Shown here: positions 1,906 to 47,820 of the stretch, piece after piece
Numbering within the stretch: the first letter of the stretch is position 1
Layout of the letters: each line of letters begins with the position of its first letter
Assembly (NCBI GenBank): GCA_038256975.1
Contig: JBBSJU010000001.1
Span: 1-57,086, forward strand
DNA: 57,086 nucleotides
Reading direction: 5' to 3'
From: Minisyncoccia bacterium
Lineage (GTDB): Bacteria; Patescibacteriota; Minisyncoccia; Phycocordibacterales; UBA5272
Position numbers and translations under genes: made by a program
The notes under the pieces: generated by a model
Databases searched by the model: none
Seen by the model: the letters and a program-made list of their open reading frames with translations, nothing else
What the model was told of the DNA's origin: nothing

Positions 1906-1946
1906 AATGTACGAATGATAGCACGAAACCTTGAAGAATCAATCTT

Positions 1947-2336: not shown

Positions 2337-2355
2337 AAATGTTTCACGTGTAACT

Positions 2356-2855: not shown

Positions 2856-2929
2856 TTTATGTGAGAGTAGTATACGATATATGGCTTTTTTTTACAATAA
2901 AGCGTATACTCTTTCCATCACAGATATAT

Positions 2930-3004
2930 GCTCCTGTGGTGAAATGGATATCACAATGGTCTTCGGAACCATTATTGGGGGTTCGAATCCCTCCGGGAGC
3001 ACCA
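2930..3004 (+). tRNA. tRNA-Arg (TCG)
   Basis: gctcctgtggtgaaatggatatcaca-atggt-ctTCGga-accat-tattgggggttcgaatccctccgggagcacca; CCA encoded. Confidence 0.95.
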
Positions 3005-31955: not shown

Positions 31956-33770
31956 ATGAAAAAAATAGTATTTATTCTCGCAGCAGTCCTTATTTCTTCG
32001 GTGTATACGTATGCAGATCAAACTGTGTATGTAGAAAAAGATTGGTTTAACTACAATTACGAAGAAGATGCTCCTCAGTACAGAGCAACGGCACAGTTTA
32101 CCACCACTGCGCCGACGACTCTTACTCCGGGTGAAACTTTTTACGCACAAGGCACAGCGTCGCGGTCAGGGTATTACTTTAATGCGCGACCAGGAGGAAC
32201 GCATGAGTGTCCGCAGGGGGTTGGATGTGATTCTTCTTTTGTTTCTGGACATCCAGGTATTGGACTTTCAAGTTCAAATAGTGGTGGCGTGACAGGAAGT
32301 GGAACTTTTGCTGCCCCAAGCACACCCGGGACATACAAGATGGGTTTTGCTGCATATTTTTCTGAAGACCCAGTGAGTGCTGGATTTTGTACTGGCTCAA
32401 CAGGTGCTCAAGTTTGTGGAGTAACACCTTTTTCATATGCGCAAGTAAATTTTACTGTGAGCGCAACTGCCTGCTCCGACTCTCTCAACAATGATAGTGC
32501 TCAAGGTGCCGATAGTGCCGATCCACAATGTCACTCTGACTGTAATGTAAACAACGCCGCATCATACGTTCCAACACATACAAGTGAAACAACTCAAGTA
32601 GGATCATGTCCAGCCCCAACACTAAACCTCACTGGTCGTTCAGCGTCACTTTTTAATTCTTTAGTTGCTTTTTTTACCGATAAGGCTGTAGCCCAAGAAA
32701 CGCAACAGGTATCAAGTGACAGACAGGCAACTTCAAACGGAGGAGTTATTGCAAGTGTAGGAATTTACAGTGGCGCAATCAAAGAAACAAAGATAAACAC
32801 TATTGAAGCTGGCTTTACTCTTAAATCTGATCTTGGTGCACAAGGAGGAGTACTGTATGGTCTTGTAATAAAAAAGAAAGATACACAGGAAGTTGTAGAC
32901 ACGGTGGCAGGAGGAGAAACGATCACGCTTAAATATGCAGAATATGCGTATAAGACTCTTTCGTATACTGCACCGGTAACGCTCGGAGGTGAGCATGATG
33001 TATATCTTGTTGTGGCAACTGATTCAAATATCCCTCTTGCTACAAAAAAACTTGGAAGCTACGCATTTACCAAAAGTCGTGACACAAACTCTTTTATTAA
33101 AGAATGTACTTTCGATACAACAGCGTTTACAGCAACATGTATAGCGGGTAACAGGGACAAGGTATCTCCGAGTGACACACTTCTTGCGGTGAACACGAGA
33201 AATGGCGGTATGTTTGGGGCAACTACGGGCACACAGCAAATTGCCAACCTCACTTTTGACGCAAAAGGTTTTGCAACAGCAACTTTTCCAATTTCTCGAG
33301 AACCAGGAATGCACGCGCTTGATGTGACCCTAGTGCAAGGACAGACTCCTCTTTCACACATTGCCTATGAATACGATATCGAAGGTAAGGGGGTAACTAT
33401 AGACAGTGTGTTTGTAGAACAAGCGGATAAAAAAATGTTTTCAGTTGGTGTTATCTCGCTTTCTCTTGCAAGAGAAGCAAAGACGGTAAAAGTGTTACTT
33501 ACAAGAAATGGTAAAGAACTTGCACAAAGTTCCACAGCTTTTACTCGTCCGCGCACCGATGTTTCATTTACATACAAAGGTTTCCGTCAGCCAGATGCAG
33601 TGATTGTAAATATTACAGATGCAAGTGGTACGGTGCTTGCAGAGAAGACGGTCCCATACGCATCTCCATTTGAAAAGAGCGGTAGTGCAGCAGCAGGATG
33701 GGGAGGAATCATTGTTCTTGCAATTATTGTACTCGGGTATATCGTGAGTCTTTTGCGAAGGAAGGTGTAG
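31956..33770 (+). CDS. Secreted, C-terminally anchored surface protein
   Basis: Signal peptide, CSD..ND....D..DP.C motif, C-terminal TM followed by RRKV. Confidence 0.8.
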   Translation: MKKIVFILAAVLISSVYTYADQTVYVEKDWFNYNYEEDAPQYRATAQFTTTAPTTLTPGETFYAQGTASRSGYYFNARPGGTHECPQGVGCDSSFVSGHPGIGLSSSNSGGVTGSGTFAAPSTPGTYKMGFAAYFSEDPVSAGFCTGSTGAQVCGVTPFSYAQVNFTVSATACSDSLNNDSAQGADSADPQCHSDCNVNNAASYVPTHTSETTQVGSCPAPTLNLTGRSASLFNSLVAFFTDKAVAQETQQVSSDRQATSNGGVIASVGIYSGAIKETKINTIEAGFTLKSDLGAQGGVLYGLVIKKKDTQEVVDTVAGGETITLKYAEYAYKTLSYTAPVTLGGEHDVYLVVATDSNIPLATKKLGSYAFTKSRDTNSFIKECTFDTTAFTATCIAGNRDKVSPSDTLLAVNTRNGGMFGATTGTQQIANLTFDAKGFATATFPISREPGMHALDVTLVQGQTPLSHIAYEYDIEGKGVTIDSVFVEQADKKMFSVGVISLSLAREAKTVKVLLTRNGKELAQSSTAFTRPRTDVSFTYKGFRQPDAVIVNITDASGTVLAEKTVPYASPFEKSGSAAAGWGGIIVLAIIVLGYIVSLLRRKV

Positions 33771-33975
33771 GAAGTAACAGGTTAAGAAATAAAAACGATG
33801 AGTCTATCATCGTTTGAATTTTTTTGTGTGGGCATAATTACTTGACTAAATGATGCAGGGGAGGTAGGGTGCGGGTAGAGAGTTTACAGTTCACGGTCGT
33901 GTTCTGAACCCTCAGTCTGTCTTCGGTATGCGCATATCTAGATAGATTTGTACATTTACTCCATGGAGAATCACA

Positions 33976-34491
33976 ATGCAAACCCAAACCGCTATCGCTG
34001 ATGTAGCAACTGACTCACTGGTTTCAGCAATGGCGCTCCGTAGCGCGCTTTACCAGAAGTTTCAGGGTTACCAGTTCAAGCCTTTGCTTGTACGTCTGCA
34101 GCGCGAGCTTGGAATCCGGGCTGAAGAAGCTCAGCAACTCTTTACTGATTTGAAGACCTGGATGTTCTTGTGCGCTGTCTCCGACAAGCCGCTCAGTCCC
34201 CCGAAAATCATTGACGAAGCTTGGCACAATTTTGTCCTGTTCACCAAGGAATACGCCAGCTTTTGTCAGGGCTTCTGTGGGCGTTTTGTGCATCACGTGC
34301 CATTTGACGGGGTGTGTCAATCTGAGGAGAGTGAATCAACACGCACCTCAGCGCACCAAAACACCCTGAACCTGATTGCTTCCCTCGGTCTTTCTGGCAA
34401 GAATTGGTTGATGGGAAGTTCTAGTTCGTGTTGCGACGGCGGTAACTGCAGCAACTCTCCTGGTGGATGCAGTCACTGTAGCGAAGGTTGA
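33976..34491 (+). CDS. DUF1399/glycine-rich-domain-like protein with Ser/Gly/Cys tail
   Basis: PPKIIDEAWHNFVLFTKEYASFC...GRFVHHVP; tail SSSSCCDGGNCSNSPGGCSHCSEG; ggag SD. Confidence 0.75.
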   Translation: MQTQTAIADVATDSLVSAMALRSALYQKFQGYQFKPLLVRLQRELGIRAEEAQQLFTDLKTWMFLCAVSDKPLSPPKIIDEAWHNFVLFTKEYASFCQGFCGRFVHHVPFDGVCQSEESESTRTSAHQNTLNLIASLGLSGKNWLMGSSSSCCDGGNCSNSPGGCSHCSEG

Positions 34492-34561
34492 TCTCGCCAC
34501 TTTTCCACTTTGGGCCGGCTAATGCCGGCCCATTTATTTTTCTTTATACTATAATCTGTAA

Positions 34562-35089
34562 ATGCAAGATATACATTTGATTTCCCAATATATAGAAATA
34601 AAAAATAAAAAAGTTTTTGATATTGGATGTGCTGGTGGTAAATTCGCTGATTTCTTCATAAGTAAAGGTGCGCACGTATTTGCTATTGATAAAATAGATA
34701 ATGTAAGTACAGGTGTGAAGGAAAATTCTAGTTTTGCCTTTCAGGAAGCAAGTATTGATACTTTTGAAACAAAAGAGAAGTTCGATATAATTTTTTCTAG
34801 AAATGTTTTTCCTTTCTGTGATAGTAAATTAGAGATGCTTTTAAATAAATTGAATAAAAATATAGTTAAAGGCGGCGTGGTATTTTTTACATATTTTGGA
34901 GATAAGGAAATCTGGGGTCAAGATGACAAGATAAAAACTTTAAAACGATTAGAAATCGATAAAATTTTAGAAGAGTATAAAAATCTTTTTGATTTGAAAT
35001 ATTTTGCTGAGGAAATTTTTGAAGGGAAGACTATGGGTGGAGGCATAAAGAATTGGCATATTTTCAGAGTGATTCTGAAAAAGAAATAA
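34562..35089 (+). CDS. Class I SAM-dependent methyltransferase
   Basis: VFDIGCAGG, VFAIDK, KFDIIFS, KGGVVF; C-terminal K.WHIF (TehB-like). Confidence 0.88.
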   Translation: MQDIHLISQYIEIKNKKVFDIGCAGGKFADFFISKGAHVFAIDKIDNVSTGVKENSSFAFQEASIDTFETKEKFDIIFSRNVFPFCDSKLEMLLNKLNKNIVKGGVVFFTYFGDKEIWGQDDKIKTLKRLEIDKILEEYKNLFDLKYFAEEIFEGKTMGGGIKNWHIFRVILKKK

Positions 35090-35260
35090 CTATTTGTAAT
35101 GTTTCTAGGTGACAGATATTCCATATTGTAAGTTCCTTAAATCTAACTTCGGTAGAAATACTAAAGGTGTGGATATTGCCTAATTAATGAAGGATTTGCA
35201 TATAAAGGTGAAAAAATAAGGGTAAAACTCTGACTCCATTATACCTGTGGATAACGGGGA

Positions 35261-35289
35261 TTGACTTGACATGTACACGGATATATTAT
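35261..35289 (+). promoter_or_regulatory. sigma70 promoter, with a DnaA box at 35246-35254
   Basis: TTGACT-17 nt-TATTAT; tgtggataa just upstream. Confidence 0.55.
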
Positions 35290-35406
35290 GATATTAGGTC
35301 CGTAATCTCCCGGTGAGGGTGTGTGCGGACAATAAATTCTCGTCATTCCGGCGGGGCGCCCAGGTGAGCTGCGTATTGCTCACTGATCTTTGATAAGGAG
35401 ACGAAA

Positions 35407-37272
35407 ATGAACAATACCTTGTTCGGGTTCGTGGCGTCCCTGATCGCCACACTCGCCCTGTTCTTGGGCTCGACCCAGGCGCAGGCACAAGTTGCAAGTG
35501 ACCGTCTGACTGTGGTCGAGTTCAAAATCGATCAGATCGGCGGTGCGGACGGCACTGGCTGTGGTGGTCCTACCATCGCCAAAAACCACTACACGATGAT
35601 CGATGATGTCAAAGTTATCGATCCCGTGCTTTGGGCGCAGTTGCCACAATCTCTGCGAGATCAGATTCCGACGGGGCGAGAAATCGAACTGTTGGACGCT
35701 GGCATCGCTGGCCCGTGGTATCGGACTGGAAACAACTTTGAGGCATGGAAGCTTGGTACACCGGGCACGGTTGCAATGCACCGCATTCAGGCCGTTCAGT
35801 TTTGTTCACATCTGTGGATTACTGAAGTCGACCTGCTCTATGGTGAGAACGCAATCGCCTGGCTCGTGCGCCAGCGCGACGGTGCCGGTAATCAAATCTA
35901 CAAGGACAACGGCGCAAGCTTCGGGGTCAAGATTCCAGTCAACGGATATCCGCTCACAGGCACACGCATGGCCTACCGTGCATACAACGGCGCCGCTTTC
36001 AAACGCGGTCAGTTGACCGTGCCGGTTGCTTATCTCGAGAATGATCCCAATTGGAGATTTATTTTCAACTGGGTTCGATGGGAAGAGACGCAGCTACTCC
36101 CTGGTTGGGAGTTGGCACGGATTGACGCGGATGCAAGTACTGATCCGAATGCTGGTAAGTTCTTGATACCAGCGGATGCGAAGTCGGTGTGGGTGGCAAA
36201 CCAAACTCCCGACGGAGTCGTGAACGATCCAGTGTACGGGCTGACGGGCAACTACCTGTCGGTGTTCAACATGGACACGCAAAACTGGGCAGCCAGTGCG
36301 CGTGTTGACGTCTCGGTGTCGGGCAAGTCGCGGAGTGTCGATTTTGACAATTCCCGCGATGTCGCCTATATGCCGCGAGGTAGTTTCCGTACGTTCCAGG
36401 CGAAATCTACGGGCCCCACGGTCACTCATGTGGCTATGGTCCCTGACACTCGCTTAGCAGCGCTTGTGTATGAGCGAACTGGCGAGGTGTTTCATCTTGC
36501 TGGGTCTGATTACGGCAATCGGGTCTTTGTGTGGAATCCGAAGACTGATACAATTTGGGACTTCATTCCTGCAACGGGAGTGGTCCCTAATCTGGATACA
36601 ACTGTCGATGGGCACATTCAAGGTGCGATTTTTGGCAACACCTTCTTCCGCGTGATTGGTATCAACAATTATACGCAGACGAAGGTTGAGGTGTACGACA
36701 TCCCAGATCGCGCGCAACGCGCGACGTACATCATCAACAAGCAGTTGGCAAATGGGGGAGGGGTTTTTGGGGCACGTCCTCAGATGTCTTTCGATCCCAA
36801 TACCAATAGTTTGTGGTTTGCTACCATCTATGACGGTTCGCTCGGAGAGCTTGATCTTGATACTGGTGTCTTTGCCGACTTCCCAATTCCGCAAGAAGCG
36901 GGGGTGGCGGTAGGAGCGACGGACGTCAAGGTTGATTCGCTGCGAAACAAGCTGTACGTGAGTATCGCGAAGTTTCGTCCCGTGTGGCAAGGTGCTTCGA
37001 CACCATTTGTTGACGGAAGCCTGTACGAGATCGATCTTGCTACCAAGCAGATCGCTCGACAGGTGACCCTTCAAGTGTACCCGTGGAGTGTTGCGATCCT
37101 TCCAACTTCGACAGGTACATATGTCGCGGTGACCAACAACGCAACAGTGTCAGGTAACAACGTGAGCGTGCCGAGCACGATCTCGGTCGTGAATGTTTCA
37201 AACTTTGCCGAAGTCGCCCGGTTGCAGACGCAGAAGCAGCCGACGGCGATGGCAGTCGAGTTCAAGGATTGA
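35407..37272 (+). CDS. Secreted protein with YncE-like beta-propeller C-terminus
   Basis: Signal peptide ending AQAQ; SD taaggag; blade-like repeats VWVAN, LYVS, YVAVTN..TISVVN; visibly GC-rich. Confidence 0.75.
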   Translation: MNNTLFGFVASLIATLALFLGSTQAQAQVASDRLTVVEFKIDQIGGADGTGCGGPTIAKNHYTMIDDVKVIDPVLWAQLPQSLRDQIPTGREIELLDAGIAGPWYRTGNNFEAWKLGTPGTVAMHRIQAVQFCSHLWITEVDLLYGENAIAWLVRQRDGAGNQIYKDNGASFGVKIPVNGYPLTGTRMAYRAYNGAAFKRGQLTVPVAYLENDPNWRFIFNWVRWEETQLLPGWELARIDADASTDPNAGKFLIPADAKSVWVANQTPDGVVNDPVYGLTGNYLSVFNMDTQNWAASARVDVSVSGKSRSVDFDNSRDVAYMPRGSFRTFQAKSTGPTVTHVAMVPDTRLAALVYERTGEVFHLAGSDYGNRVFVWNPKTDTIWDFIPATGVVPNLDTTVDGHIQGAIFGNTFFRVIGINNYTQTKVEVYDIPDRAQRATYIINKQLANGGGVFGARPQMSFDPNTNSLWFATIYDGSLGELDLDTGVFADFPIPQEAGVAVGATDVKVDSLRNKLYVSIAKFRPVWQGASTPFVDGSLYEIDLATKQIARQVTLQVYPWSVAILPTSTGTYVAVTNNATVSGNNVSVPSTISVVNVSNFAEVARLQTQKQPTAMAVEFKD

Positions 37273-37394
37273 ATTTGATGAACAGAGTCTCAGAGTCCCT
37301 ATGCACTAGTATGTGTGTAGGGCTCTTTTCTATAAGGATGTAGGGTATGGAAGGAATACGTATTATGTCTATGGAGTATACTTATTTGAATATA

Positions 37395-39218
37395 ATGAAA
37401 AAGAAAATCAAAGTTGGAATTTTTGTAGAGGGGAAATTTCTACCAGCATATGACGGTGCTAATAATCGCTTCCAGTATCTATCAAAGTTTTTACAGTTAT
37501 CTGGAAAAGTTGATGTTGTAATTTTTCATTGCCATCGTGGGTATACAGATATTAAATTAGTGAAAGGTCAACTTTTTACAACTTACCTTGTTTCCGAAGA
37601 AAACTATTATAATAATTTGGAATTATTAGCAATTCTAATTCAGAAAGAACAGATTGATATTTTACAATTCAATGATTTAGAACCGATTTTGTATCAAGGG
37701 GTAAAATTGTCAAAAATGACTAATACAAAATTAGTTTACGAAATTCATTACAATTCTGCACAATTAGCAAAAACACTTGGTGAAAAAGACGAGATCATCA
37801 ACAGTATTATAAAAAACCAAAGCAAGGTTGGAAAAAACATTGACTACGCAATTTGTCTAAGTGGTGATGACAAAAAAGACTCAATTAAAAACTTACGAAT
37901 TAAAGAAAACGAATTGACCGTGATTTCAAGTGGCGTTGATTTAAGTGAGAATAATTATCATTCTCCGAATTTGAGAGACAAAACCATAGTTTTTTTAGGT
38001 AATTTATATTTTAAACCAAACGAAGATGCGGTTAAGGTTTTAAAAGATAAAATATATCCAAAATTATTAGATCATGGTTTTTCGTTTATAGTGGCGGGCG
38101 ATTGCCCAATAAAATTAAAAACGAAATTGAGTGATAAAAACTTTGATTTTATTGGAACAGTGAAAGATTTGAATTTTCTTTTTGCAAAAGCTAGTATATG
38201 TGTCGCACCGATTTTTGAGGGCACCGGAATTAGAATCAAGTTTTTGAATTTTATGTCGGGCGGTATTCCGGTTTTAACAACACGAATTGCAACTAATGGT
38301 TTTCTAAACAAAAGTAACTTTATTATCGAAGATAATATTGATAGGTATGCCGAAAAAATAGTTCATCTTTTTAACGATGATAGACTCGTTAAGATTTCAA
38401 AAAATAGCAGAAAATTAATTGAGCAAGATTATTCTTGGCAAAAAATTGCTAAGCAAGTTATTAGGGTCTATAGAAAAGTTTTAAATAAAAAGACTAAAAA
38501 CAAGACAGAGGGTGTAGAAATTTTACAAAAACCAGCTTGGTTAAGAGAATTGATTAGTAAAGGTAGATACAAGTTAATTCAAAAACTACCAAGAGGCTTC
38601 TCCTTTTCAAAGGTGTCAAACGGTAAGGTTGAAAACTTTATATTGAAAAATATTATTGCAATTGAAGGAATGCCGGGGGCGGGTAAAACAACTTTTGTGA
38701 ATAATTTGCAATTTAAAAAGGTAAAAACTATAAAGGAGTGGCATATAAAGATTCCTAAAAATATTAAAAGCAATTTTGAAATTCAGAGACTGTATATATT
38801 ATCTGAAAAAAACAAGTATAAAATAAATAGCAAGTTTTACCAAAAAAAAGAAAAAATAGTTTTGGACCGAAGTTTTATATCTACTTTGGCGTATTCGTAT
38901 GCTGATTGTAAAACAAATAATGTGATGACTGATTATAAGAAAATACTAAAATTGTTGGGAAATATTAAGTACGAAATTTTATGGCCAACTAAAATTATTG
39001 TTTTAGATTGCTCGATTAAAGAAAGTATTAAAAGACGAAAAAGATTTCAAAATATTATTGAATACAGAAAATGGTTTGATCAAAAGTTTTTAGTAAATTT
39101 TAGTGATTTCTATCACAATGAATTACCAAAACTCCTAGAAGTTAAACCTATTTTTGTGGATACTAGCAACAAAACAATTTTAGAAGTTGAAAACGAAGTC
39201 ATGAAAGAAATTCTATGA
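37395..39218 (+). CDS. GT4 glycosyltransferase fused to a thymidylate-kinase-like P-loop NMP kinase
   Basis: FLGNLYFKPN, APIFEGTGIRIKFLNFMSGGIPVLTT, YSWQKIA; then IAIEGMPGAGKTT, LDRSFIST. Confidence 0.85.
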   Translation: MKKKIKVGIFVEGKFLPAYDGANNRFQYLSKFLQLSGKVDVVIFHCHRGYTDIKLVKGQLFTTYLVSEENYYNNLELLAILIQKEQIDILQFNDLEPILYQGVKLSKMTNTKLVYEIHYNSAQLAKTLGEKDEIINSIIKNQSKVGKNIDYAICLSGDDKKDSIKNLRIKENELTVISSGVDLSENNYHSPNLRDKTIVFLGNLYFKPNEDAVKVLKDKIYPKLLDHGFSFIVAGDCPIKLKTKLSDKNFDFIGTVKDLNFLFAKASICVAPIFEGTGIRIKFLNFMSGGIPVLTTRIATNGFLNKSNFIIEDNIDRYAEKIVHLFNDDRLVKISKNSRKLIEQDYSWQKIAKQVIRVYRKVLNKKTKNKTEGVEILQKPAWLRELISKGRYKLIQKLPRGFSFSKVSNGKVENFILKNIIAIEGMPGAGKTTFVNNLQFKKVKTIKEWHIKIPKNIKSNFEIQRLYILSEKNKYKINSKFYQKKEKIVLDRSFISTLAYSYADCKTNNVMTDYKKILKLLGNIKYEILWPTKIIVLDCSIKESIKRRKRFQNIIEYRKWFDQKFLVNFSDFYHNELPKLLEVKPIFVDTSNKTILEVENEVMKEIL

Positions 39219-40120
39219 ACAAATTATCTGTAATTATCTCTACTTATAGACATCAAAACAGAATTCTGGGGTTAAAAAAAATCGCTCTATCTTTATCAAA
39301 AAAAGAAAATGATGATTTGTTGCTAGAAATAATCATTGTGGATAATGGAGGCTCTCTTTCTGAAAGTGAAAAAAGTGATTTATTAGCAATACATTCAAAA
39401 ATTTTCTTTATTATTGAAAATGAAATTGGTTTGAATATTGCTAGGAATACAGGTGTAAAAAGTAGTAACGGCGACATTATCGCTTTTATGGATGATGACG
39501 TTTGGGTTTCAGAAACTTGGGCAAAAAACATTTTGGATGCTTATGAAAATAGCAGTGTTTGGTGTGCTGGTGGAAAAGTCACTATGACAAATATGGAAAT
39601 TATTAAAGATAAAAAATGGTTAACAAATTATTTTCTACGTTTTTTATTTCCAACGGAATTCCCGGAACATACTGGGCAAATTATCGCCCCGTATTTTCTA
39701 GTTGGTGCAAATATGTCATTTAGAAAAGATATTTTTGAAAAATATGGACTGTTTGATAAAAAACTCGATAGAGTTGCGAATAAGCTTTTATCTTGTGGGG
39801 ATACAGAATTCATAGGGAGATTACCTAAAGAAAATATTTTCTTTATAAAAGATGCTGTAGTTTATGGAGAAATCGATGAAAAACGGTTGAACGTAAAATA
39901 TATGTTAAAACGATTATATTGGCAAGGATATTCAGATTTTATTTTTATACAAAAGGTTGGTATAGATAGATTTTTTGATAGACACGAGATTCAATTTGGG
40001 CGGAGCTTTTTGGAGTTTATTTTTTCAAAACTGTTTCAGTTTAAGTTTTTTGAATCTATCTGTGTTATAGCGAGGTGCGTTGGTTTTTATGTCTCAAAAA
40101 AGAAAAATGAGAGCAAATAG
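39215..40120 (+). CDS. GT2 family glycosyltransferase
   Basis: LSVIISTY, IIIVDNG, GLNIARNTG, FMDDD, GANMSFRK, GDTEF. Confidence 0.92.
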   Translation: MNKLSVIISTYRHQNRILGLKKIALSLSKKENDDLLLEIIIVDNGGSLSESEKSDLLAIHSKIFFIIENEIGLNIARNTGVKSSNGDIIAFMDDDVWVSETWAKNILDAYENSSVWCAGGKVTMTNMEIIKDKKWLTNYFLRFLFPTEFPEHTGQIIAPYFLVGANMSFRKDIFEKYGLFDKKLDRVANKLLSCGDTEFIGRLPKENIFFIKDAVVYGEIDEKRLNVKYMLKRLYWQGYSDFIFIQKVGIDRFFDRHEIQFGRSFLEFIFSKLFQFKFFESICVIARCVGFYVSKKKNESK

Positions 40121-40129
40121 GGCGTGCTC

Positions 40130-40678
40130 TCATTCAATTATAGTAAGTATTTTGGAAAAAGCGTTTTGTGGATTATCAGAGGAATTATCAATTATTACAT
40201 CCGGTAGAACTCTCTTAAATTCCTCTAAACACCTTCTTTCTGACTCCTGTCTTATATAATCTTTACTGTAGTCATTAATGGGGTCTCTTTTGGAAATTCG
40301 TTCCAACCTGATCTGATTTTCGCAAAAAATTAAGAAACAAAAGTCAGGCATAAGAATGTTAAGTTGTGGGAAGCAAGAAAGATCTAAGCCGAGTGTTTTG
40401 TGATAGCAAAAAGTTGACCAAATGTATTTATCACAAATGACAGGCTTCTCTCTCAGTATTTCGCTAACTTCTGAGGATACTTGTAGATTGAGTGATAAAT
40501 AAAAGTAATATCTTGCTTCAATTGATAAACTTCTATCTGCTAGTGAACGTATTTCTCGAAAACTTGCCGGAGTATTGTAGTAAACACCACCAAGTCTTTC
40601 TGCAAGCATTTTTGCGAGTGTAGTTTTACCACTTCCCATAATTCCTTCCAGAACGATAAATCTGTTTTGTGTACACAC
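40130..40678 (-). CDS. Thymidylate kinase-like (CMPK2-like) nucleotide kinase
   Basis: IVLEGIMGSGKTT, FYLSLN, PVICDKYIWSTFCY, RLERISKR. Confidence 0.85.
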   Translation of the reverse strand: MCTQNRFIVLEGIMGSGKTTLAKMLAERLGGVYYNTPASFREIRSLADRSLSIEARYYFYLSLNLQVSSEVSEILREKPVICDKYIWSTFCYHKTLGLDLSCFPQLNILMPDFCFLIFCENQIRLERISKRDPINDYSKDYIRQESERRCLEEFKRVLPDVIIDNSSDNPQNAFSKILTIIE

Positions 40679-40744
40679 AGGAATCTCCTTCTGTAAAGAG
40701 CTTACTTTTCTTTTTATAACACTCTACAGATAAAAGTCAAGCTT

Positions 40745-41281
40745 TTAGAGAAACGATTTCAGCTCTTCGGTTAGTTTCCATAAATACTTTTTTGCCAAAG
40801 AATCCTCGCAAGAATCTAAGAAATTTTGAATTTGAGCAACATATTTATCATTGTTAACGAATTTTGGGTACAAATGCTGCTCATTCTTTTGATAAATTTT
40901 AATAAAGTTACCCATATGTGAGGTGAAGTCAGCAATCTTAATCAATTTTGCTCCATCAGAAATTCTTCTAATGTGTTCATAATATTCTGTCATCAAATCT
41001 TGTTTTGTCAGTTCAGGCCTCGTCGAGTCTTTCCAGTCTTTTACATGCGATACCTCTAAAATCAAATTTAAAACATCTAGTCCAAATTTTTCAATAATTT
41101 CTTCGTTTGTTGCATTAGTATCCTCTAAAACATCGTGTAAAAGTCCAGCAATCAAGATATTGGTATCTTCTACTTTAAAATCTTCTTTTAATAAAAAATA
41201 AACCTCTAAAAAATGATTCTCAATGTTAACCTCGGAGAATTTTCTAGTAGCAAATTCTTTAGCTTGCTCGATGTTATCCAT
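40745..41281 (-). CDS. HD-domain protein, RelA/SpoT hydrolase (SAH/Mesh1)-like
   Basis: H.LEV, AGLLHDVLEDT, FG.DV..L..EVS, AKLIKIAD; start codon uncertain. Confidence 0.85.
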   Translation of the reverse strand: MDNIEQAKEFATRKFSEVNIENHFLEVYFLLKEDFKVEDTNILIAGLLHDVLEDTNATNEEIIEKFGLDVLNLILEVSHVKDWKDSTRPELTKQDLMTEYYEHIRRISDGAKLIKIADFTSHMGNFIKIYQKNEQHLYPKFVNNDKYVAQIQNFLDSCEDSLAKKYLWKLTEELKSFL

Positions 41282-41462
41282 ATACATGTGTATACCATTT
41301 TTTAGAGTATTTTTCAATTTTTTTATCTGTCAAAAATGTGAGTAGGGAACTGACTAAATAAGTAAGGTTAATAAATAATGATCTCTAAGTCCTGCATGCA
41401 AGCACCTGTGTGTAGGGCTCTTTTTTATATCTACATCTTTGATATACTTTTTGTATAGCACT

Positions 41463-43742
41463 ATGACTAAATTTTTATCTCTTCTCTCGTTCGCACTGCT
41501 TATTACGTTTGGAATGTTTAACATTTCATACGCAGCCTGCGGAACTATTAATCTTTCTTGTACTCAGGATTTAGAATTAAGTTGGACTTCAACGGGGCAA
41601 ACTCCTCAGTTGTGTGAGGTTGGTGGGGCGGGTTGGTCAGGATCTTCGCAGTGTACTTCTCAAGCTGAGCCGAGCGCGAGTAATGGCTGGATACGGATTT
41701 CTGCAGACAGTATTCCAAATGGAACAAGTCTCTATTCTTTCCAAGGCGTACCGCTCTCAGGCACTCCACCACAGATGACAGATACGTGTACTATTGTTAA
41801 ACCAACAAATTGTGTACCTTCAGGCTCTGGTACTTACGACATCTCTGCTGCGCCGAATCCTGTGCAAATTTGTAGCCCAGCAACTACAGGAGCAAGTAAT
41901 ATTTCTTGGGTAGCACCAAGCGGCGAGAGTGTGCGGGTGGATGTGAACGGGACACTTTTTAGTAATGGAACAGGTAATGGCTCACAATCAGCAAACTATA
42001 TTTCACTTGGCACTCCATACACATTCAGTTTGTATCGTACAACAGGTGGAGTAAATGAACTTAAAGATACGGTGAGTGTAAGTGGTACAACTGATGGATG
42101 TCCAGGAGCAACATCATTTAAATGTGCAAGTAATTCATGTCAGGCGTGTGGGGGATCAACAGGCGTTGCCTGCGATAGTACTGGGGGAAGCTGTACAGCA
42201 GTAGGGGAGTCTTGTGCTGTAACGCCGCCAGCCGCAACAAATGATGTTGGATTTGGTAATCCTACAGGAGCAGGCTTTGCAAAAAATCTCACTATCTCAC
42301 AAGGAACGAATGCCCAACTTAACTGGACATCATCTGGTACAGGACTTACAAATTGTCGCATTCAACGTTCTGATAACGGTGGTTCAACTTGGTACGATAA
42401 TGGCTGGACAGGAGCGGTGGGTGGAAATACTGCCACAAACTGGGCGGTGGGAACATATCCATTTCGACACATTTGTGCACAGTCATCAGGTGGAAATTTA
42501 ATAAGCGCAACAGCAACGTTGACTATTCAAAGTGGACCGGTAGCAACTGCAGCGCTTGGATTTAATGTCGTTGGAAATAGCGTTACGGAGCCAACAAAAA
42601 CTATTAATTCTGGTCAAACAACGAATCTTTATTACGGTGTTGAAAATGTTGTAGCAAATTCTTGTACCATTACACAAAGTCCAACGGGCGGACTTCCTGC
42701 CGCGAATGCTTCTACGCAAGCAACACAGACATTTCAATCAGGAAGTCTTTCTGCGCCATGGGGGGCAACTGCAGGCGTATCATCTTTCACCTACACGATG
42801 ACATGTACAAGAACTTCTGGAGGAACCATTGCTTCAAATGTGGCAACACTTACCGTGAACCAAGTGCCGAGTTGTGGTAATAATATTTGTAACGGAAATG
42901 AGACGTGCAGTAGTTGTCCACAGGATTGTGGAGCTTGCGCAGGTAGTGGGACACTTGACGCGGCGTGCCTTACTAGTCCGAGTGTTCCGACCGTACGTTC
43001 AGGACAGCAATTTACCGTGAATGTGCCGTTTACAAACACAGGGAGTAAGGTCTGGACTCCTTCGCAGACGATGTCGTATCTTGCTCGTTCATCCGCCCAA
43101 GTAAGCACAGGATGGAACGGTCTCACCCAAGGTCTTTCGTATGCTATTCCAGGTACTCCAGCATCAGGGGTCTTTACTCCAAGTTTTGCTCTTACCGCAC
43201 CATATGTTTCTTCGGTAACAGATTTTATTCTCACCTTTAGAATGCAAGAAAACGGAGTTCCTTTTGGATCGACATGTTTTGTAAATGGGACAGGGAATGT
43301 CACCGTGGCTCCGCCCCGATGTAGTGATGGAGTGGATAATGATATTGATGGTTTAACAGATTGTACAACAGGAGCTGAAGATCCTGGATGTTATCCAGAC
43401 GGAAACGGAGGTGGTGGGGCATGTAATCCACAAGATGATGATGAAAATGACGCAACTGGTGCAGTGCTTCGAATTTCTGCAAATCCGCAACTCGTGCGTC
43501 AAGGAGGATCATCACAGATCTCATATGAAGTAACTGGATGCGTGAGTCAAGATAAAGGCAATCCTGTTGCTTGGGAACTTCTTCGAGACGGACTTTCTAT
43601 TGGAGTGTCAGGTTCAGAAAGTAGCGACGGAGAACAAAAGTATCCTGTTACGGATATTCAAAACAAGACGACCTTTACGCTATCTTGCGGTGGCACATCA
43701 CGTGCAGCAACAATATCAGTGATAAAGATTGGAGAGTTTTAA
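41463..43742 (+). CDS. Secreted Cys/Thr/Gly-rich multi-domain surface protein
   Basis: Signal peptide; Ig-like LSWTS repeats; CGNNICNGNETCSSCPQDCG; FTNTGSKVW; CSDGVDNDIDGLTD..DPGC. Confidence 0.82.
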   Translation: MTKFLSLLSFALLITFGMFNISYAACGTINLSCTQDLELSWTSTGQTPQLCEVGGAGWSGSSQCTSQAEPSASNGWIRISADSIPNGTSLYSFQGVPLSGTPPQMTDTCTIVKPTNCVPSGSGTYDISAAPNPVQICSPATTGASNISWVAPSGESVRVDVNGTLFSNGTGNGSQSANYISLGTPYTFSLYRTTGGVNELKDTVSVSGTTDGCPGATSFKCASNSCQACGGSTGVACDSTGGSCTAVGESCAVTPPAATNDVGFGNPTGAGFAKNLTISQGTNAQLNWTSSGTGLTNCRIQRSDNGGSTWYDNGWTGAVGGNTATNWAVGTYPFRHICAQSSGGNLISATATLTIQSGPVATAALGFNVVGNSVTEPTKTINSGQTTNLYYGVENVVANSCTITQSPTGGLPAANASTQATQTFQSGSLSAPWGATAGVSSFTYTMTCTRTSGGTIASNVATLTVNQVPSCGNNICNGNETCSSCPQDCGACAGSGTLDAACLTSPSVPTVRSGQQFTVNVPFTNTGSKVWTPSQTMSYLARSSAQVSTGWNGLTQGLSYAIPGTPASGVFTPSFALTAPYVSSVTDFILTFRMQENGVPFGSTCFVNGTGNVTVAPPRCSDGVDNDIDGLTDCTTGAEDPGCYPDGNGGGGACNPQDDDENDATGAVLRISANPQLVRQGGSSQISYEVTGCVSQDKGNPVAWELLRDGLSIGVSGSESSDGEQKYPVTDIQNKTTFTLSCGGTSRAATISVIKIGEF

Positions 43743-43766
43743 TAGAAGAGGGGAGGCTACAAATAA

Positions 43767-43790
43767 AAACCAGCAGAGATGCTGGTTTTG
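43767..43790. terminator. Intrinsic terminator
   Basis: aaaaccagc-agagat-gctggtttt. Confidence 0.75.
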
Positions 43791-43891
43791 TTTTTGCGGA
43801 TTTTTAACTCCTTGGGATTTTAAGATAACAAGCAATATTGATATCTTGAATAAGTTTTGGAGTTAGATCATTTTTTGCTAGACTTTAGATT

Positions 43892-45127
43892 ATGAATACT
43901 TTTATTGATACTTCAAAAAATCCTTTGGATATAGAAGTAGTTGAACGTAAAGGTATAGGTCACCCCGACTCGTTGGCAGATATAATTGCTGAGGATTTTT
44001 CAAATAGGTACTCGTTATTCTGTTTAGAGCAGTTTGGTACTGTTTTAAACTATTGGTTTGACAAGGTGACCCTTTCAGGGGGTGTCTGTGATTTAGGTTT
44101 TGGTAGGTGTAGTATTTTAAAACCAATAACAATATATTTATTTGGTAGAGTAACTACAAAATTTGCTGATCATAAGATACCTGTCGAAGCCATGTTTAAA
44201 GAAAGCTGTTTCGGTGTTTTTGATCAAATTTTCGGAGACTCTTATCCAAAGGAATCAATCAATTTTTTCTTTGACGTAAATAGTGCTATCGGCGCTGATC
44301 ATGAAAGAACGTACTATTCCCCAGATTCTATCGGTTCGTTAAAAACGTATGAGAATTTTACTGCAAATGATACTGTTGTCTGTCATGGGTATGCCCCTTA
44401 TACAAAAACTGAGACTATTTGTATTGCTATTGAAAACTTTCTTAACTCAACCTCATTCAAAAATAAATATAATGCAACGGGTTGGGACGTAAAGGTTTTA
44501 ATTATTCGTGAGAATTCTTCTTATAGAATAACAATCTGCATTCCTTTTATTGCCAATAAAACACAATCCCATGAATTTTATTTAAATTCAAAAAATGAAA
44601 TTAAAAAGGAAATAAGCGAGTATCTTAAAAGTAGCAATTTTTTCTCTATTGAAGATAGCTATGAAATCTATTTAAATACAAAGGATAAAGATAACCTTGC
44701 TTATCTTGTTGCATTTGGCTCGGCTGTGGATAAAGGAGATTATGGTGCTGTTGGAAGAGGGAATAGATACTCGGGTGTTATTTCGGTAAATCGTGGTACG
44801 AATGTTGAAGCTGTTAATGGAAAAAATTCTCGAAATCATAGTGGTAAATTGTATACAGTTTTGTCGTATGCAGTAGCTTCTTTTGTCTACGAGAAAACAG
44901 GTGAACCCTGTCAGGTTATTATTACTACTGATAATGGTAGACTTCTGAATAATCCCACTATGGTTGTGATTCGTTTTGATAACAAAGGGTTCACTTTGAA
45001 TAAAGAAGACGATTTAGTAATCAAGGAATATATTAAAACAATCTTTAGTGAAATCGATAAACTTTCTTCTTCCATAATATTGCGTAATCCTGTCACTGAT
45101 TTTAAAAACATTTTTATCTATGCTTAA
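43892..45127 (+). CDS. Archaeal-type S-adenosylmethionine synthetase homologue (divergent)
   Basis: EVVERKGIGHPDSLAD, ANDT, GAVGRGNR, EAVNGKN.RNHSGKLY. Confidence 0.88.
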   Translation: MNTFIDTSKNPLDIEVVERKGIGHPDSLADIIAEDFSNRYSLFCLEQFGTVLNYWFDKVTLSGGVCDLGFGRCSILKPITIYLFGRVTTKFADHKIPVEAMFKESCFGVFDQIFGDSYPKESINFFFDVNSAIGADHERTYYSPDSIGSLKTYENFTANDTVVCHGYAPYTKTETICIAIENFLNSTSFKNKYNATGWDVKVLIIRENSSYRITICIPFIANKTQSHEFYLNSKNEIKKEISEYLKSSNFFSIEDSYEIYLNTKDKDNLAYLVAFGSAVDKGDYGAVGRGNRYSGVISVNRGTNVEAVNGKNSRNHSGKLYTVLSYAVASFVYEKTGEPCQVIITTDNGRLLNNPTMVVIRFDNKGFTLNKEDDLVIKEYIKTIFSEIDKLSSSIILRNPVTDFKNIFIYA

Positions 45128-45680
45128 AGTAATACTAATTGGTGGCGGAGAATTAACTGAAGACACCCTTTTAAAAATAAAAGAAGAGTCTACTTCAGGT
45201 TTTTTAAAATCAACAAATATTAAGACGATGGTCATTCCATTTGCGAGACATGAAGAGGATTGGGATGCTGTATACAATAAGAATGTAACTAAATATGCCC
45301 ATGAGGGTTACAATTACTCGTTTGTATGTCCAAGCAGGATTCATGATGTTTTTTTGAAACAACTGGTTGATTCAGAACTTATTATTATCTGTGGGGGTAG
45401 TGAGTTGAGTCTCGCAAAGAATCTACCGACTCTTTCAGGTGCTAATTTTGATAATAAGGTAATAATTGCAACATCTGCAGGTGCTAATTTTTTAGCAACT
45501 TCCTATTATTCTAATGATAGAAATGAATTTGCCGTAGGCGCTAATCTTTTAAAGATAAACACGTTTTGTCATTTTAAAGATGGCATGAACGATAAATTAA
45601 AAAAGTTGGCAGAATCAAACGGATTACCAACTCTCCCTATAAGAGAAGGTAGTTTTATTGTATTATATGAAAGCAAATAG
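45120..45680 (+). CDS. Peptidase S51 / type 1 glutamine amidotransferase-like protein
   Basis: ILIGGG, VIPFA, IICGGS, TSAGA nucleophile elbow, CHF. Confidence 0.75.
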   Translation: MLKVILIGGGELTEDTLLKIKEESTSGFLKSTNIKTMVIPFARHEEDWDAVYNKNVTKYAHEGYNYSFVCPSRIHDVFLKQLVDSELIIICGGSELSLAKNLPTLSGANFDNKVIIATSAGANFLATSYYSNDRNEFAVGANLLKINTFCHFKDGMNDKLKKLAESNGLPTLPIREGSFIVLYESK

Positions 45681-46170
45681 TCATGTTTTAAATTTTCTGG
45701 AGATATTTTCTAAAAATTATGATAATAGTATCGAAGATAGTGTAATTGTGCTTCTTAAACCTGATTTTCCGGAAGACAAAAAATATGATTTTTTGTCTTA
45801 CTGTAGCGAAAGATCGTTAAAGATTATATTCGAAGACTCTTCTATTTTAGATAGAGATAAAATCTTTGGTATTTATTATGATATTTTCAAACAAAGAGAT
45901 GATGATAGAAAATATGGAATATCATGGAAATTAAAATTAATCGATTACTTAACAACCGGAAAATCTGCTTATTACATAGTTCAAGGAGTAAATGCCCAAA
46001 AGTTATTAAATGACTATAAAAAAATGATTAGAGAAGAATATAATAAAATTACTACGCCAAAAGAAACTTTAAATGAAAATGATTTTTTTGAAAAAGTAAT
46101 TAAAAATCTAATTCATATTACAAATGAGAAAGAATTTGTTCCGACATGTTGGTTTTTATTTATGAAGTAA
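45667..46170 (+). CDS. Nucleoside-diphosphate-kinase-like protein
   Basis: VLLKPD, LIDYLTTGKS, K..IR, NLIH; start codon uncertain. Confidence 0.65.
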   Translation: MKANSHVLNFLEIFSKNYDNSIEDSVIVLLKPDFPEDKKYDFLSYCSERSLKIIFEDSSILDRDKIFGIYYDIFKQRDDDRKYGISWKLKLIDYLTTGKSAYYIVQGVNAQKLLNDYKKMIREEYNKITTPKETLNENDFFEKVIKNLIHITNEKEFVPTCWFLFMK

Positions 46171-46173
46171 GTC

Positions 46174-47532
46174 ATGGAGAAAAGGGAGAAAATACCTAAT
46201 GGTTTTGATGATGAAGACAATAAAGAAAGCATTTTTCGTCTGGGTGTCTCACCTGTAAAGGCAAATTTTCGTATTGGCCCTCTTCGATCACATTTGTATA
46301 ACTATATTTATGCCAGTAATGAAAAATTAAAAAATAAAGATTCCAAAGTTTATTTTCGAGTCGACGACTCAAATCAAGAGAAAGGAGACAGGGAAATGTC
46401 TGATAAACTTTTTTGTTTTTTTTCAGAAACCTTAGGAATGGTATTTGATCAGCACGAAGATGGTAGTCGAATGATCTTTCAGTCTGAAAGAGTTGATTTA
46501 TATCGCGAGTATTTAGAGAAGTTATTTGATATAGGTGTGGTATTTTTGGATAAGGAGTCTGGCTTAACTCTTTTTGATATTGAAAAGTTTATTGATATTC
46601 ACGGAGAAATAATTCAATTTCATGATCTCGTGAGAGGTGACGTGACATTAAAATTAAAAAAGCTTTTAGATAAACAAAAGTTTTTCCCCTTAGTGAGATC
46701 AAATGGCTCTGTGTTATATCACTTAGCTTCTGTTACTGACGACGATCTTCTCGGTGTTACGCATGTTGTACGAGGGACTGATAAGCTTTCTGTTGCACAG
46801 TATCAAGAAATGGTAAGAATTGCTCTTGAATTGGAACCTAAAAAATTTATGCACACACCGCTCATGTTGGACGATGAAGGCGGTTTATTAAAGGGAGATG
46901 TTTTATATGATTCTTTTATTAAAAAAGGTATTTTACCTCAAGCGATGTTATCCTATATGATTTCATCAGGTTATGGCGACCCTGATATGGTGTATGAGTC
47001 GATAGATGCCATTATAGAGAGATTTGATTATAAGAGAGTAAGACAAAATAATGGAAGGTTTGATTTTAAAAAATTAGTTAGTATAAATAGAAAAATTTTG
47101 TCTGGTATTAGTGATGAGGATTATGGTATTTCATTAAGATTATATTTTGCGAAAGTAAATAGAGAAGATATACAAAAAGGTCTTAATAATGATGTAGAAT
47201 TGCTATCTCTGTTTTTAAAACTAAAAATACCCTTCGAAAAAGCTGAAGCGTTTTACAATGCTTTAAATCAGCCAGACTATTCCAATATCGAAAAACTTGA
47301 TCAGGAAGTTATAGATGCACTTATCTTTTTTATTGAAGAATTTAACGCGAGCAAGTTTAATTGTAAAGATATTTTTTATTCTGCAGATAGGAATAAAATT
47401 AAAGCATTAAGATTTCTCCTCATCGGAGGCTTAGAAATATCAGGAGGTTTGTTGGAGATAGTAGAGTATTTAATTTCTAAAAAACTCATTTCTAAAAGAC
47501 TAGAGACACTAGGTAGTTTTTTAAGTGTATGA
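46174..47532 (+). CDS. Glutamyl-tRNA synthetase paralogue with degenerate HIGH/KMSKS motifs
   Basis: R...SP, FRVDD, QSER..LY, RSNG..LYHLASVTDD, VTHVVRGTD, H.PLM, FD.KKL..IN; HIGH position reads RIGP and KMSKS position reads LLKG. Confidence 0.82.
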   Translation: MEKREKIPNGFDDEDNKESIFRLGVSPVKANFRIGPLRSHLYNYIYASNEKLKNKDSKVYFRVDDSNQEKGDREMSDKLFCFFSETLGMVFDQHEDGSRMIFQSERVDLYREYLEKLFDIGVVFLDKESGLTLFDIEKFIDIHGEIIQFHDLVRGDVTLKLKKLLDKQKFFPLVRSNGSVLYHLASVTDDDLLGVTHVVRGTDKLSVAQYQEMVRIALELEPKKFMHTPLMLDDEGGLLKGDVLYDSFIKKGILPQAMLSYMISSGYGDPDMVYESIDAIIERFDYKRVRQNNGRFDFKKLVSINRKILSGISDEDYGISLRLYFAKVNREDIQKGLNNDVELLSLFLKLKIPFEKAEAFYNALNQPDYSNIEKLDQEVIDALIFFIEEFNASKFNCKDIFYSADRNKIKALRFLLIGGLEISGGLLEIVEYLISKKLISKRLETLGSFLSV

Positions 47533-47559
47533 CCTTACCTATTTGTAATAGGTAAGGTA
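47533..47559. terminator. Hairpin after the AT-rich operon
   Basis: ccttacctat-ttgta-ataggtaagg. Confidence 0.55.
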
Positions 47560-47820
47560 TGAAATCTCTATGACGAAAGAGGCTGATAAGTACTCATTTT
47601 CAGAATCAAATACTAAAACGTTCGTTCTTAATTCTAGGTTAGGAAGCGTTTCAGGGATGATTTGTATATAAAGCAGGGGAAATAGGCAGGCAACTTCAGG
47701 TTTTTGTTATCCCCACCTTTTCGACATGTATTCTTGCCATAACTATATACGTGTGACATAGTTCACCTTATCTGTATTGAAGTACAGGTAGTTGCGGTTT
47801 ATTACAATTATTTTATATAT

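Follow-up and report, generated by a model that had tools for sequence, protein, structure and literature searches.

What might an operon that joins a methionine adenosyltransferase (MAT) to a look-alike of glutamyl-tRNA synthetase (GluRS) be doing in a bacterium of the candidate phyla radiation (CPR; Patescibacteria), a group regarded as biosynthetically minimal? The question is raised by a stretch of 57,086 nucleotides from a Minisyncoccia bacterium (GenBank assembly GCA_038256975.1, contig JBBSJU010000001.1, positions 1 to 57,086 of the forward strand; hereafter the window), whose source genome measures 683 kb, has a GC content of 0.411 and is 99% complete as judged by marker genes. In the original prediction, which was made from the sequence of the window, two AT-rich gene blocks were placed in a single pathway leading to a modified nucleotide. 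Block 1 comprises genes for a methyltransferase, a fusion of a glycosyltransferase family 4 (GT4) domain to a kinase, a family 2 glycosyltransferase (GT2), a Tmk-like kinase and an HD hydrolase; block 2 comprises genes for MAT, an S51-family hydrolase (S51), a protein resembling nucleoside diphosphate kinase (NDK-like) and the GluRS paralogue, here called GluRSp. We find that block 2 is a mobile operon that is foreign in composition, was inserted as a unit and has MAT, S51 and GluRSp as its core.

Gene coordinates and identities in the window were taken from a list of open reading frames (ORFs) together with Pfam and NCBIfam family scans, and all of the genes named in the original prediction were present where it had placed them. 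The features of block 2 are as follows:

43892-45127, + strand: archaeal-type MAT, 411 aa (PF01941, 268 bits; cut-off 27)
45120-45680, + strand: S51-family serine hydrolase with a class I glutamine-amidotransferase-like fold, 186 aa (PF03575, 34.9 bits; cut-off 23.9)
45658-46170, + strand: divergent NDK-fold protein, 170 aa, likely start ATG 45667 (AlphaFold2 and Foldseek)
46174-47532, + strand: GluRSp, full-length GluRS paralogue without HIGH and KMSKS, 452 aa (PF00749, 76.8 bits)
47534..47558, + strand: terminator-like hairpin directly 3' of the GluRSp stop, marking the operon end, as read from the sequence: CCTTACCTATTTGTAATAGGTAAGG
43730..47727, no strand assigned: block-2 insertion of ~4.0 kb, absent from the same-genus genome G003 (blastn of its contig L042 against the window)

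The four genes are packed as tightly as had been predicted: those for MAT and S51 overlap by 8 nt, those for S51 and the NDK-like protein by 23 nt (14 nt if the ATG at 45667 is used), and 3 nt separate the NDK-like gene from that for GluRSp. Their GC contents (MAT 0.328, S51 0.333, NDK-like 0.242 and GluRSp 0.320) compare with 0.411 for the genome, in which 2.5% of 1-kb windows (n = 678) have a GC content of 0.335 or less. The similarly low GC content claimed for the two blocks was confirmed (0.24-0.35 across both). So was the claim that housekeeping enzymes have paralogues here: searches of the genome placed a canonical GluRS on contig C10 (TIGR00464, 424.6 bits) and, further along contig C1, the canonical forms of both NDK and Tmk.

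GluRSp scored 135.2 bits against the GluRS model TIGR00464 (cut-off 289.95) and 72.8 bits against the GluQRS model TIGR03838 (cut-off 276.7). It belongs to a family of ~50 proteins, mostly from CPR metagenome-assembled genomes, that is set apart from canonical GluRS by a gap in score from 158 to 123 bits and in which no match to a Pfam anticodon-domain was found. In class I synthetases, the HIGH and KMSKS motifs hold the phosphates of ATP and the leaving pyrophosphate. At the position of HIGH, GluRSp of the window reads RIGP, and K/R-I-G-P/A/R is found in 16 of the 16 aligned family members; the three canonical GluRS sequences in the same alignment have H-V/I-G-T/G. The KMSKS loop is ~5 residues shorter and reads LLKG-D, a deletion common to most of the family, and all 16 aligned members lack the HIGH histidines and the KMSKS lysines. 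The earlier description of the protein as a motif-degenerate GluRS was thus accurate. Invariant between GluRSp and canonical GluRS are R38, R62, D65, Q103-S104, D189-D190, H197, R200 and P229, and the C-terminal ALRW.L.GK motif of GluRSp aligns with the canonical P.RYALSGK. Moreover, the AlphaFold2 model of GluRSp (predicted local distance difference test score, pLDDT, 80) matched GluRS 8jpv with a template-modelling (TM) score of 0.77 over 459 columns that include the C-terminal anticodon-binding domains. GluRSp therefore resembles canonical GluRS in fold, domain order and most core residues but has lost HIGH and KMSKS, a combination of retained residues and lost motifs that makes the family look built to hold glutamate, an adenosine moiety and tRNA but not to carry out adenylation. 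Full-text searches of the literature brought up no paper that describes the family or links it with MAT and S51.

A GluRS paralogue that works outside translation is already known in GluQRS (YadB, the tRNA(Asp) glutamyl-queuosine synthetase), whose models match the core of GluRSp at an E-value of ~1e-20. However, GluQRS is ~300 aa long and has no anticodon-binding domain (TM-query of 1nzj and 4a91, 0.44-0.45), whereas GluRSp, at 452 aa, has C-terminal domains. GluQRS also still activates glutamate with ATP.

The loss of both class I catalytic signatures throughout the family is compatible with a protein that binds without catalysis, namely a decoy or immunity protein against a Glu-AMP-like inhibitor, or a sensor of glutamate or tRNA(Glu) that regulates MAT or S51. 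Also in keeping with such an inert binder are the accessory, horizontally moving distribution of GluRSp (see below) and the report that a paralogue of an aminoacyl-tRNA synthetase (aaRS) carried in a gene cluster often serves resistance (PMC5388404). A resistance copy, however, has to go on charging tRNA, so that HIGH and KMSKS would be retained, and GluRSp was rejected as a resistance copy for this reason. In addition, many core residues are invariant at 25% identity and the dN/dS ratio of GluRSp is 0.12, as would be expected of an active site more than of a sponge, and the gene is translationally coupled within an operon of enzymes. We consider an inert binder unlikely.

The co-encoded MAT matches Methanocaldococcus jannaschii MAT 7p82 (E-value 1.7e-48) and keeps the GHPDS, ANDT, GD.G.VGRGNR and GKN..NH.GK stretches; judged by these motifs, it probably makes S-adenosylmethionine (SAM). 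Its score against NCBIfam NF003362 (313 bits) is under the 481-bit equivalog cut-off, so that its substrate could differ. No second MAT was found in the genome, which gave no other PF01941 match and no match to PF02773 or bacterial MetK. We also sampled 60 related genomes (G001-G060) for the module, by which we mean GluRSp with its neighbours, and for MAT. The module was absent from all 60, in which the best matches to GluRSp were canonical GluRS proteins of 26-33% identity; PF01941 was present in 4 and bacterial MetK in 6 of the 60. In three genomes of the same genus, neither an archaeal-type nor a bacterial MAT was found. Because few of the 60 relatives have any MAT, the gene does not appear to be an ordinary housekeeping gene in this lineage. 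(Neither type of SAM synthetase was seen in ~50 of the 60 relatives, many of which are >95% complete, which suggests SAM import or another route to SAM in this order.)

S51-family enzymes cleave after N-terminal acidic residues. In S51 of the module, S119-A120-G121 (within G-x-S-A-G) and H151 are invariant among 19 module-linked homologues, and most of these sequences, though not every one, have Glu at the third position of the triad. These residues, which we take to be the catalytic triad by comparison with PepE, suggest that S51 is probably an active hydrolase. The protein matched dipeptidase PepE in NCBIfam (E-value 1.2e-5), the stronger of the variant-C homologues (variants are defined below) also touch a CobQ-type amidotransferase model, and a PDB sequence search with S51 gave no match.

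The NDK-like protein gave no match to Pfam (PF00334 included) or NCBIfam, and its family comprises 33 cluster representatives in 1.84 billion proteins. In an alignment of 27 members, K34, P35, W90, R125, N150 and H153 are invariant, and 8 of the 27 relatives match Pfam NDK weakly (best E-value 9.3e-4). Its AlphaFold2 model has a pLDDT of 90, all of the PDB matches listed (Foldseek ranks 1-50) are NDKs, and His153 aligns with the NDK histidine in 3vvt. With Pfam silent, the predicted structure, the Foldseek matches and the invariant residues bear out the earlier NDK-like call and indicate that the product of the ORF truly has the NDK fold. Not every module includes the gene, an optional accessory that was seen, besides the window, in 4 of 38 GluRSp loci. 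(An NDK-NUDIX fusion of 277 aa is encoded at L066 3817-4647, ~1 kb downstream of a variant-D module, which would independently tie NDK-type and NUDIX functions to the system.)

The 38 GluRSp loci were surveyed by tblastn and Pfam; 15 come from species-representative genomes and 23 from metagenomes, and the former reduce to 14 distinct loci because L029 is identical to L030. S51 lies within ~3.5 kb of GluRSp in 12 of the 14 genome loci (the other two are on short or truncated contigs) and in at least 21 of the 23 metagenome loci. Archaeal-type MAT is found in 10 of 14 and 11 of 23, respectively. This synteny persists at GluRSp identities as low as 25-31% (L034-L037), and PF01941 was present in all five module-carrying whole genomes, including one (G460) in which it is unlinked and the genome also has a bacterial MetK. 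Four arrangements were distinguished:

Variant A: MAT-S51-(NDK-like)-GluRSp, the arrangement of the window
Variant B: SAM_HAT ((R)-SAM-hydrolase-like), P-loop protein, MJ1255-family glycosyltransferase, S51 and GluRSp, sometimes with canonical GluRS
Variant C (L029, L057): MAT, truncated AlaRS-like protein (related to alanyl-tRNA synthetase), S51, methyltransferase and GluRSp
Variant D: MAT-GluRSp, then a HAD or alkaline-phosphatase-superfamily gene, S51, P-loop kinase and NUDIX

Because variant D includes GluRSp proteins of 25-31% identity, the trio of MAT, S51 and GluRSp is old. The AlaRS-like protein of variant C (391-396 aa) matched the N-terminal part of AlaRS with a TM-score of 0.71 in an Atlas structure search and gave weak alaS matches; a PDB sequence search with the 309-aa protein of variant B gave only noise. 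(L029 and L030, whose genome records are labelled as different phyla, Patescibacteria group and Omnitrophota, have the same layout and tblastn matches identical in identity and length, and probably represent one shared or mis-binned contig. Genes split across two frames were seen for MAT in L057/L058 (4065-5284) and L063 and for GluRSp in L060, and reflect either frameshift errors or real pseudogenisation.)

Several features of these loci speak for a mobile element that is under selection. The GC content of the module is below that of its flanks in 6 of 6 other loci (L023, L024, L026, L031, L065 and, slightly, L036). In L023, L026, L027, L035, L037, L046 and L065, no more than ~600 bp separate the module from a tRNA gene, and in L036 an rve integrase is located between the tRNA gene and the module. 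There is no dedicated tRNA(Glu): tRNA-Glu was found in the fetched span of 3 of 26 scanned loci and never in the operon. Between the window and L023 (GluRSp identity 80%), dN/dS was 0.10 for MAT, 0.15 for S51, 0.18 for the NDK-like protein and 0.12 for GluRSp. Values of 0.10-0.18 indicate purifying selection and exclude decay; the genes are horizontally acquired, and the neutral decay that would have counted against the original prediction was not seen.

Comparison with G003, a same-genus genome in the sample of relatives, showed block 2 to be a discrete insertion. The recG gene of G003 is 82% identical to that of the window. Within ~300 bp after it, G003 has a 76-nt remnant corresponding to the 3' end of the window gene at 41439-43742, of which it keeps only the last 28 codons, and ~105 bp past the remnant come the upstream region and the start of a homologue of the window gene at 47821-51363. 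By blastn, L042 4339-4414 corresponds to window 43654-43729 and L042 4519-4762 to window 47728-47978; between these two matches lie ~105 bp in G003 and ~4.0 kb, the MAT-to-GluRSp operon, in the window. The ends of the 4-kb insertion showed no direct repeats of the kind that would suggest a target-site duplication. Relative to G003, the window has a further ~11.8 kb between recG and position 43654, the part in which block 1 lies, so that the interval from recG to the S74-domain gene at 47821-51363, ~440 bp in G003 and ~15.9 kb in the window, is hypervariable within the genus. Blocks 1 and 2 are separate indels with respect to G003, split by the conserved 76-nt remnant.

Could block 2 simply serve nutritional salvage, with S51 as a dipeptidase that releases amino acids, MAT as a plain SAM synthetase, the NDK-like protein regenerating nucleoside triphosphates and GluRSp as a degenerate passenger? 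The MAT is the only one in its genome, its gain could itself be of benefit in a lineage where ~50 of 60 relatives lack any, and S51 members include the dipeptidase PepE. However, no other member of the cluster is as conserved as GluRSp, on which purifying selection acts, the association of MAT, S51 and GluRSp persists across variants and phyla, and archaeal-type MAT accompanies GluRSp even where a bacterial MetK is present. Salvage of this kind is, in our judgement, improbable.

Under a second alternative, GluRSp is a SAM-dependent tRNA modifier: it would bind tRNA(Glu) or a related tRNA as a synthetase does, SAM would occupy the pocket that once held the adenylate, and the tRNA would receive a methyl, aminocarboxypropyl or adenosyl/ribosyl group, with MAT supplying the SAM; the descent of GluQRS from GluRS would be a parallel. 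The full-length fold with its anticodon-binding domain, the loss of only the phosphate-handling motifs and the tight coupling to MAT, in synteny and in phyletic pattern, are all in line with such a role, as are the additional SAM methyltransferases that variant C and L053 carry, a P-loop kinase in L032 that weakly resembles PSTK and the presence in the source genome of a gene for tRNA-guanine transglycosylase (TGT), by which tRNA hypermodification occurs in this organism. On the other hand, tRNA modification leaves S51, the most constant neighbour, without a role, and likewise the NUDIX, HAD, NDK-like and phosphatase genes, which point to free nucleotides. A patchy, island-like distribution would be unusual for a modification that optimises translation, and no precedent is known for the use of SAM by a class I aaRS fold. 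On balance we regard a tRNA-modifying GluRSp as doubtful.

The closest parallels that we found come from antibiotic biosynthesis. According to a 2026 review (PMC12945691), AcmF of the ascamycin pathway is an AlaRS-like protein that lacks the residues for activation of ATP and alanine but keeps the tRNA-recognition domain; it takes Ala-tRNA, the product of the co-encoded AlaRS AcmD, and with it acylates an analogue of adenosine in the adenylate site, and the hydrolase AcmE removes the alanyl group. In the same source, SbzA, an IleRS-like protein of SB-203208 biosynthesis, relies on the housekeeping synthetase for Ile-tRNA, with which it acylates a small molecule bound in its aminoacylation site; it keeps HYGH and AMSKA, charges weakly and doubles as a resistance copy. 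GluRSp is like AcmF in having lost the activation motifs and kept the tRNA-recognition part (the anticodon-binding domain), and the truncated AlaRS-like gene of variant C is of AcmF-like size and fold. The pairing with AcmD and AcmE may likewise have counterparts, as canonical GluRS is fused or adjacent in some loci and S51 is a hydrolase partner. Thus, P0234 (1002 aa) consists of GluRSp (residues 1-430) followed by a GluRS with HIGS and KLSKR, the single record of a fused form, and canonical GluRS genes lie inside the cluster in L025, L028 and L059, whereas that of the window organism is on another contig. GluRSp is like SbzA in being a class I aaRS paralogue of full aaRS architecture in an accessory cluster, but unlike SbzA it has lost both signature motifs. 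Differences from the ascamycin system are that GluRSp is built on a class I GluRS scaffold and is full length (AcmF is class II, AlaRS-like and truncated), that the module hydrolase is S51 (AcmE is an alpha/beta-hydrolase), and that genes for archaeal-type MAT or a SAM hydrolase homologue stand in place of those for sulfamoyl-adenosine. Moreover, ascamycin is made by Streptomyces, whereas the hosts of the module are CPR and other small-genome bacteria.

We tentatively favour, without giving it better than even chances, a mechanism in which GluRSp is an aminoacyl-tRNA-dependent glutamyl transferase acting on an acceptor derived from SAM or adenosine, with S51 as the de-glutamylase and the NDK-like, kinase, HAD and NUDIX proteins trimming phosphates. 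GluRSp would no longer activate glutamate but would take ready-made Glu-tRNA(Glu) from canonical GluRS and pass the glutamyl group to an adenosine-containing acceptor in its old adenylate pocket. The acceptor would be SAM, or a derivative of SAM or adenosine, that comes from the co-encoded MAT or, in one variant, is processed by the SAM hydrolase homologue. S51 would then take the glutamyl group off again, as a means of activation, recycling or self-protection, and the NDK-like protein, together with the kinases and the HAD, NUDIX and phosphatase-superfamily proteins of other variants, may adjust the phosphorylation of the nucleoside. An AcmF-like logic of this kind fits the P0234 fusion, the canonical GluRS genes in L025, L028 and L059 and the truncated AlaRS-like protein of variant C.

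A number of points weigh against a glutamyl transferase. The mechanism is argued by analogy, and the roles given to conserved residues of GluRSp in binding glutamate and adenine are presumed from GluRS structures. Canonical GluRS is adjacent in only three loci, in addition to the one fusion record, and P0234 is a single protein on a 4.4-kb contig that could be an artefact of assembly or gene calling. No ascamycin-type genes for building an acceptor (sulfamoyl genes) were identified in the module, and the variant-D "Sulfatase" genes are generic matches to the alkaline-phosphatase superfamily only. Since SbzA keeps HIGH- and KMSKS-like motifs, motif loss is no requirement of this class of enzyme. 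Variant B has a SAM hydrolase homologue and no clustered MAT, so SAM could be consumed; MAT is apparently split into two frames in L057/L058; and, being the only one in its genome, the MAT of the window may also serve general SAM supply.

A different use of the same pocket would be that GluRSp has swapped ATP for SAM, with the sulfonium seated in the adenylate pocket and attacked by the glutamate carboxylate or by the terminal adenosine of the tRNA. Such a swap, to which we give little credence, would explain the obligatory pairing with a dedicated MAT, the SAM hydrolase homologue of variant B and the loss of only those motifs that handle the triphosphate. If true, ATP-independent adenosyl, aminocarboxypropyl or aminoacyl transfer would be new chemistry for the aaRS superfamily.

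Does block 1 belong to the same pathway? The original prediction had both blocks making a glycosylated, glutamylated or aminoalkylated nucleotide that is taken to the triphosphate and used for DNA hypermodification, chain termination or anti-phage defence. The features of block 1 and of the island around it are the following:

31956..43742, + strand: variable surface island between RecG and the block-2 insertion, with secreted proteins mixed with block-1 genes
31956-33770, 35407-37272 and 41439-43742: three secreted Thr/Ser/Gly/Ala-rich proteins of 604, 621 and 767 aa (signal-peptide-like N-termini and composition)
34562-35089, + strand: class I SAM-dependent methyltransferase, 175 aa (Methyltransf_23, 35.5 bits)
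37347-39218, + strand: GT4 fused to a Tmk/dNK-like P-loop kinase, 623 aa (Pfam and NCBIfam)
39215-40120, + strand: GT2 glycosyltransferase, with a 4-nt overlap with the GT4-kinase gene (PF00535, 60.2 bits)
40130-40678, - strand: stand-alone Tmk-like kinase, a second copy, convergent (PF02223, 64.9 bits)
40745-41317, - strand: HD_4 (SpoT-type) phosphohydrolase, 190 aa (PF13328, 40 bits)

In the fusion, the GT4 part matched Glyco_trans_1_4 (69.2 bits, residues 212-344) and the kinase part Thymidylate_kin (residues 439-617, at 23.6 bits below the 27-bit cut-off) and TIGR00041 (E-value 2.4e-8). Its ~55 full-length homologues, of 37-97% identity, argue that the architecture is real and conserved, although its kinase part (residues beyond ~393) was matched by nothing in 400 sampled genomes of the phylum. 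Among the homologues, P0207 (918 aa) additionally carries a GT2 domain, and because it joins both in one protein, the GT4-kinase and GT2 genes are likely to work together; that block 1 might be conserved as a unit is suggested by this one GT2 fusion. The best NCBIfam match of the GT2 itself is an AglG-type glucosyl-dolichyl-phosphate glucuronosyltransferase (E-value 1.7e-30, far below the cut-off). The HD hydrolase matched TIGR00691 (spoT_relA, E-value 3.4e-13) over the hydrolase part only, and a canonical Tmk lies just past the 3' end of the window (contig C1, 57461-58036).

For a joint pathway speak the low GC content that block 1 (methyltransferase 0.284, GT4-Tmk 0.286, GT2 0.301, HD 0.304 and second Tmk-like 0.346) shares with block 2, and the presence of kinases for both nucleoside monophosphates and diphosphates. 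In addition, the stand-alone Tmk-like kinase matches PADLOC PDC-M51B (E-value 1.6e-21) and VakA (E-value 5.8e-20), glycosyltransferases adjoin GluRSp in variant B and in L031, and a methyltransferase downstream of GluRSp-NUDIX in L053 is weakly similar to that of the window (27% identity, generic). (The only other block-1 matches in PADLOC were those of the kinase domain of the fusion to PDC-M51B and of the methyltransferase to mad2; the stand-alone kinase and the adjacent SpoT-type hydrolase could be a candidate for nucleotide-based defence.)

However, apart from the L053 methyltransferase, tblastn of the 38 GluRSp loci turned up no block-1 protein, and the glycosyltransferases of variant B are from another family, MJ1255/VC2487. 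The GT4-Tmk fusion was not found in any of the five module-carrying whole genomes, and the two blocks are separate indels, as noted above. The single pathway thus fails the check for co-occurrence, its two halves having unrelated neighbourhoods. Nor does the idea of a modified deoxynucleotide for DNA modification or chain termination fare better: none of the four block-2 proteins matched PADLOC 2.0, the GluRSp family has no relative in the viral collection, and no DNA-modifying, base-modifying or polymerase gene was found among the genes identified in the region by Pfam and NCBIfam. (In PHROGs, MAT, S51 and the NDK-like protein had no match and GluRSp matched only phrog_35649, of unknown function; the GT4-kinase fusion also had no relative in the viral collection, in a single-protein query that reaches only close relatives.) A pathway running through both blocks is very improbable. 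What survives of the original prediction in this respect is nucleoside or aminoacyl-nucleoside chemistry, which is the best available reading for block 2 but not as a pathway that takes in block 1.

The two blocks are unrelated acquisitions in one hypervariable, surface-protein-rich island that extends from recG to the tail-fibre-like gene. Genes for secreted proteins, with GC contents of 0.44-0.54, interleave with the AT-rich genes, a feature that had gone unmentioned in the earlier description; no Pfam family was found for the three Thr/Ser-rich proteins, the first of which ends in a C-terminal membrane anchor. Because block 1 sits among such proteins, glycosylation of the envelope or of glycoproteins is suggested, and most likely the GT4-kinase, GT2 and methyltransferase put a glycan on the envelope or on the secreted Thr/Ser-rich proteins encoded next to them. 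A separate small pair, with a place in nucleotide metabolism, would be the convergent Tmk-like kinase and the SpoT-type HD hydrolase.

Within the island, the ORF at 33976-34491 (+ strand, 171 aa, GC 0.516) has a weak Integrase_1 match (E-value 0.0025, below the cut-off) and a Cys/Gly/Ser-rich C-terminus, and may be a mobile-element remnant. At its far end, the gene at 47821-51363 (+ strand) encodes 1180 aa, of which residues 937-991 form a Peptidase_S74 intramolecular-chaperone domain, and the C-terminal part matches tail-fibre or baseplate PHROGs; its homologue at the same place in G003 has diverged (49-59% identity in pieces), and the product is either a phage-tail-fibre-like bacterial surface protein or a prophage remnant. 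Four tRNA genes clustered at the start of the window (1473-3004; Gly-TCC, Pro-TGG, Gly-GCC and Arg-TCG) are unrelated to these findings.

Taken together, our findings describe a horizontally circulating operon, found from CPR to other small-genome lineages, that couples a dedicated archaeal-type MAT to a conserved GluRS look-alike, and block 2 points to undescribed tRNA- or SAM-linked chemistry in symbionts. If GluRSp does act in the manner of AcmF, the aminoacyl-tRNA-dependent aaRS-like transferases would gain in it their first member of class I and their first that is specific for glutamate, and the operon would hint at metabolites of the aminoacyl-nucleoside type from episymbionts, which may act on the translation apparatus of a host or competitor.

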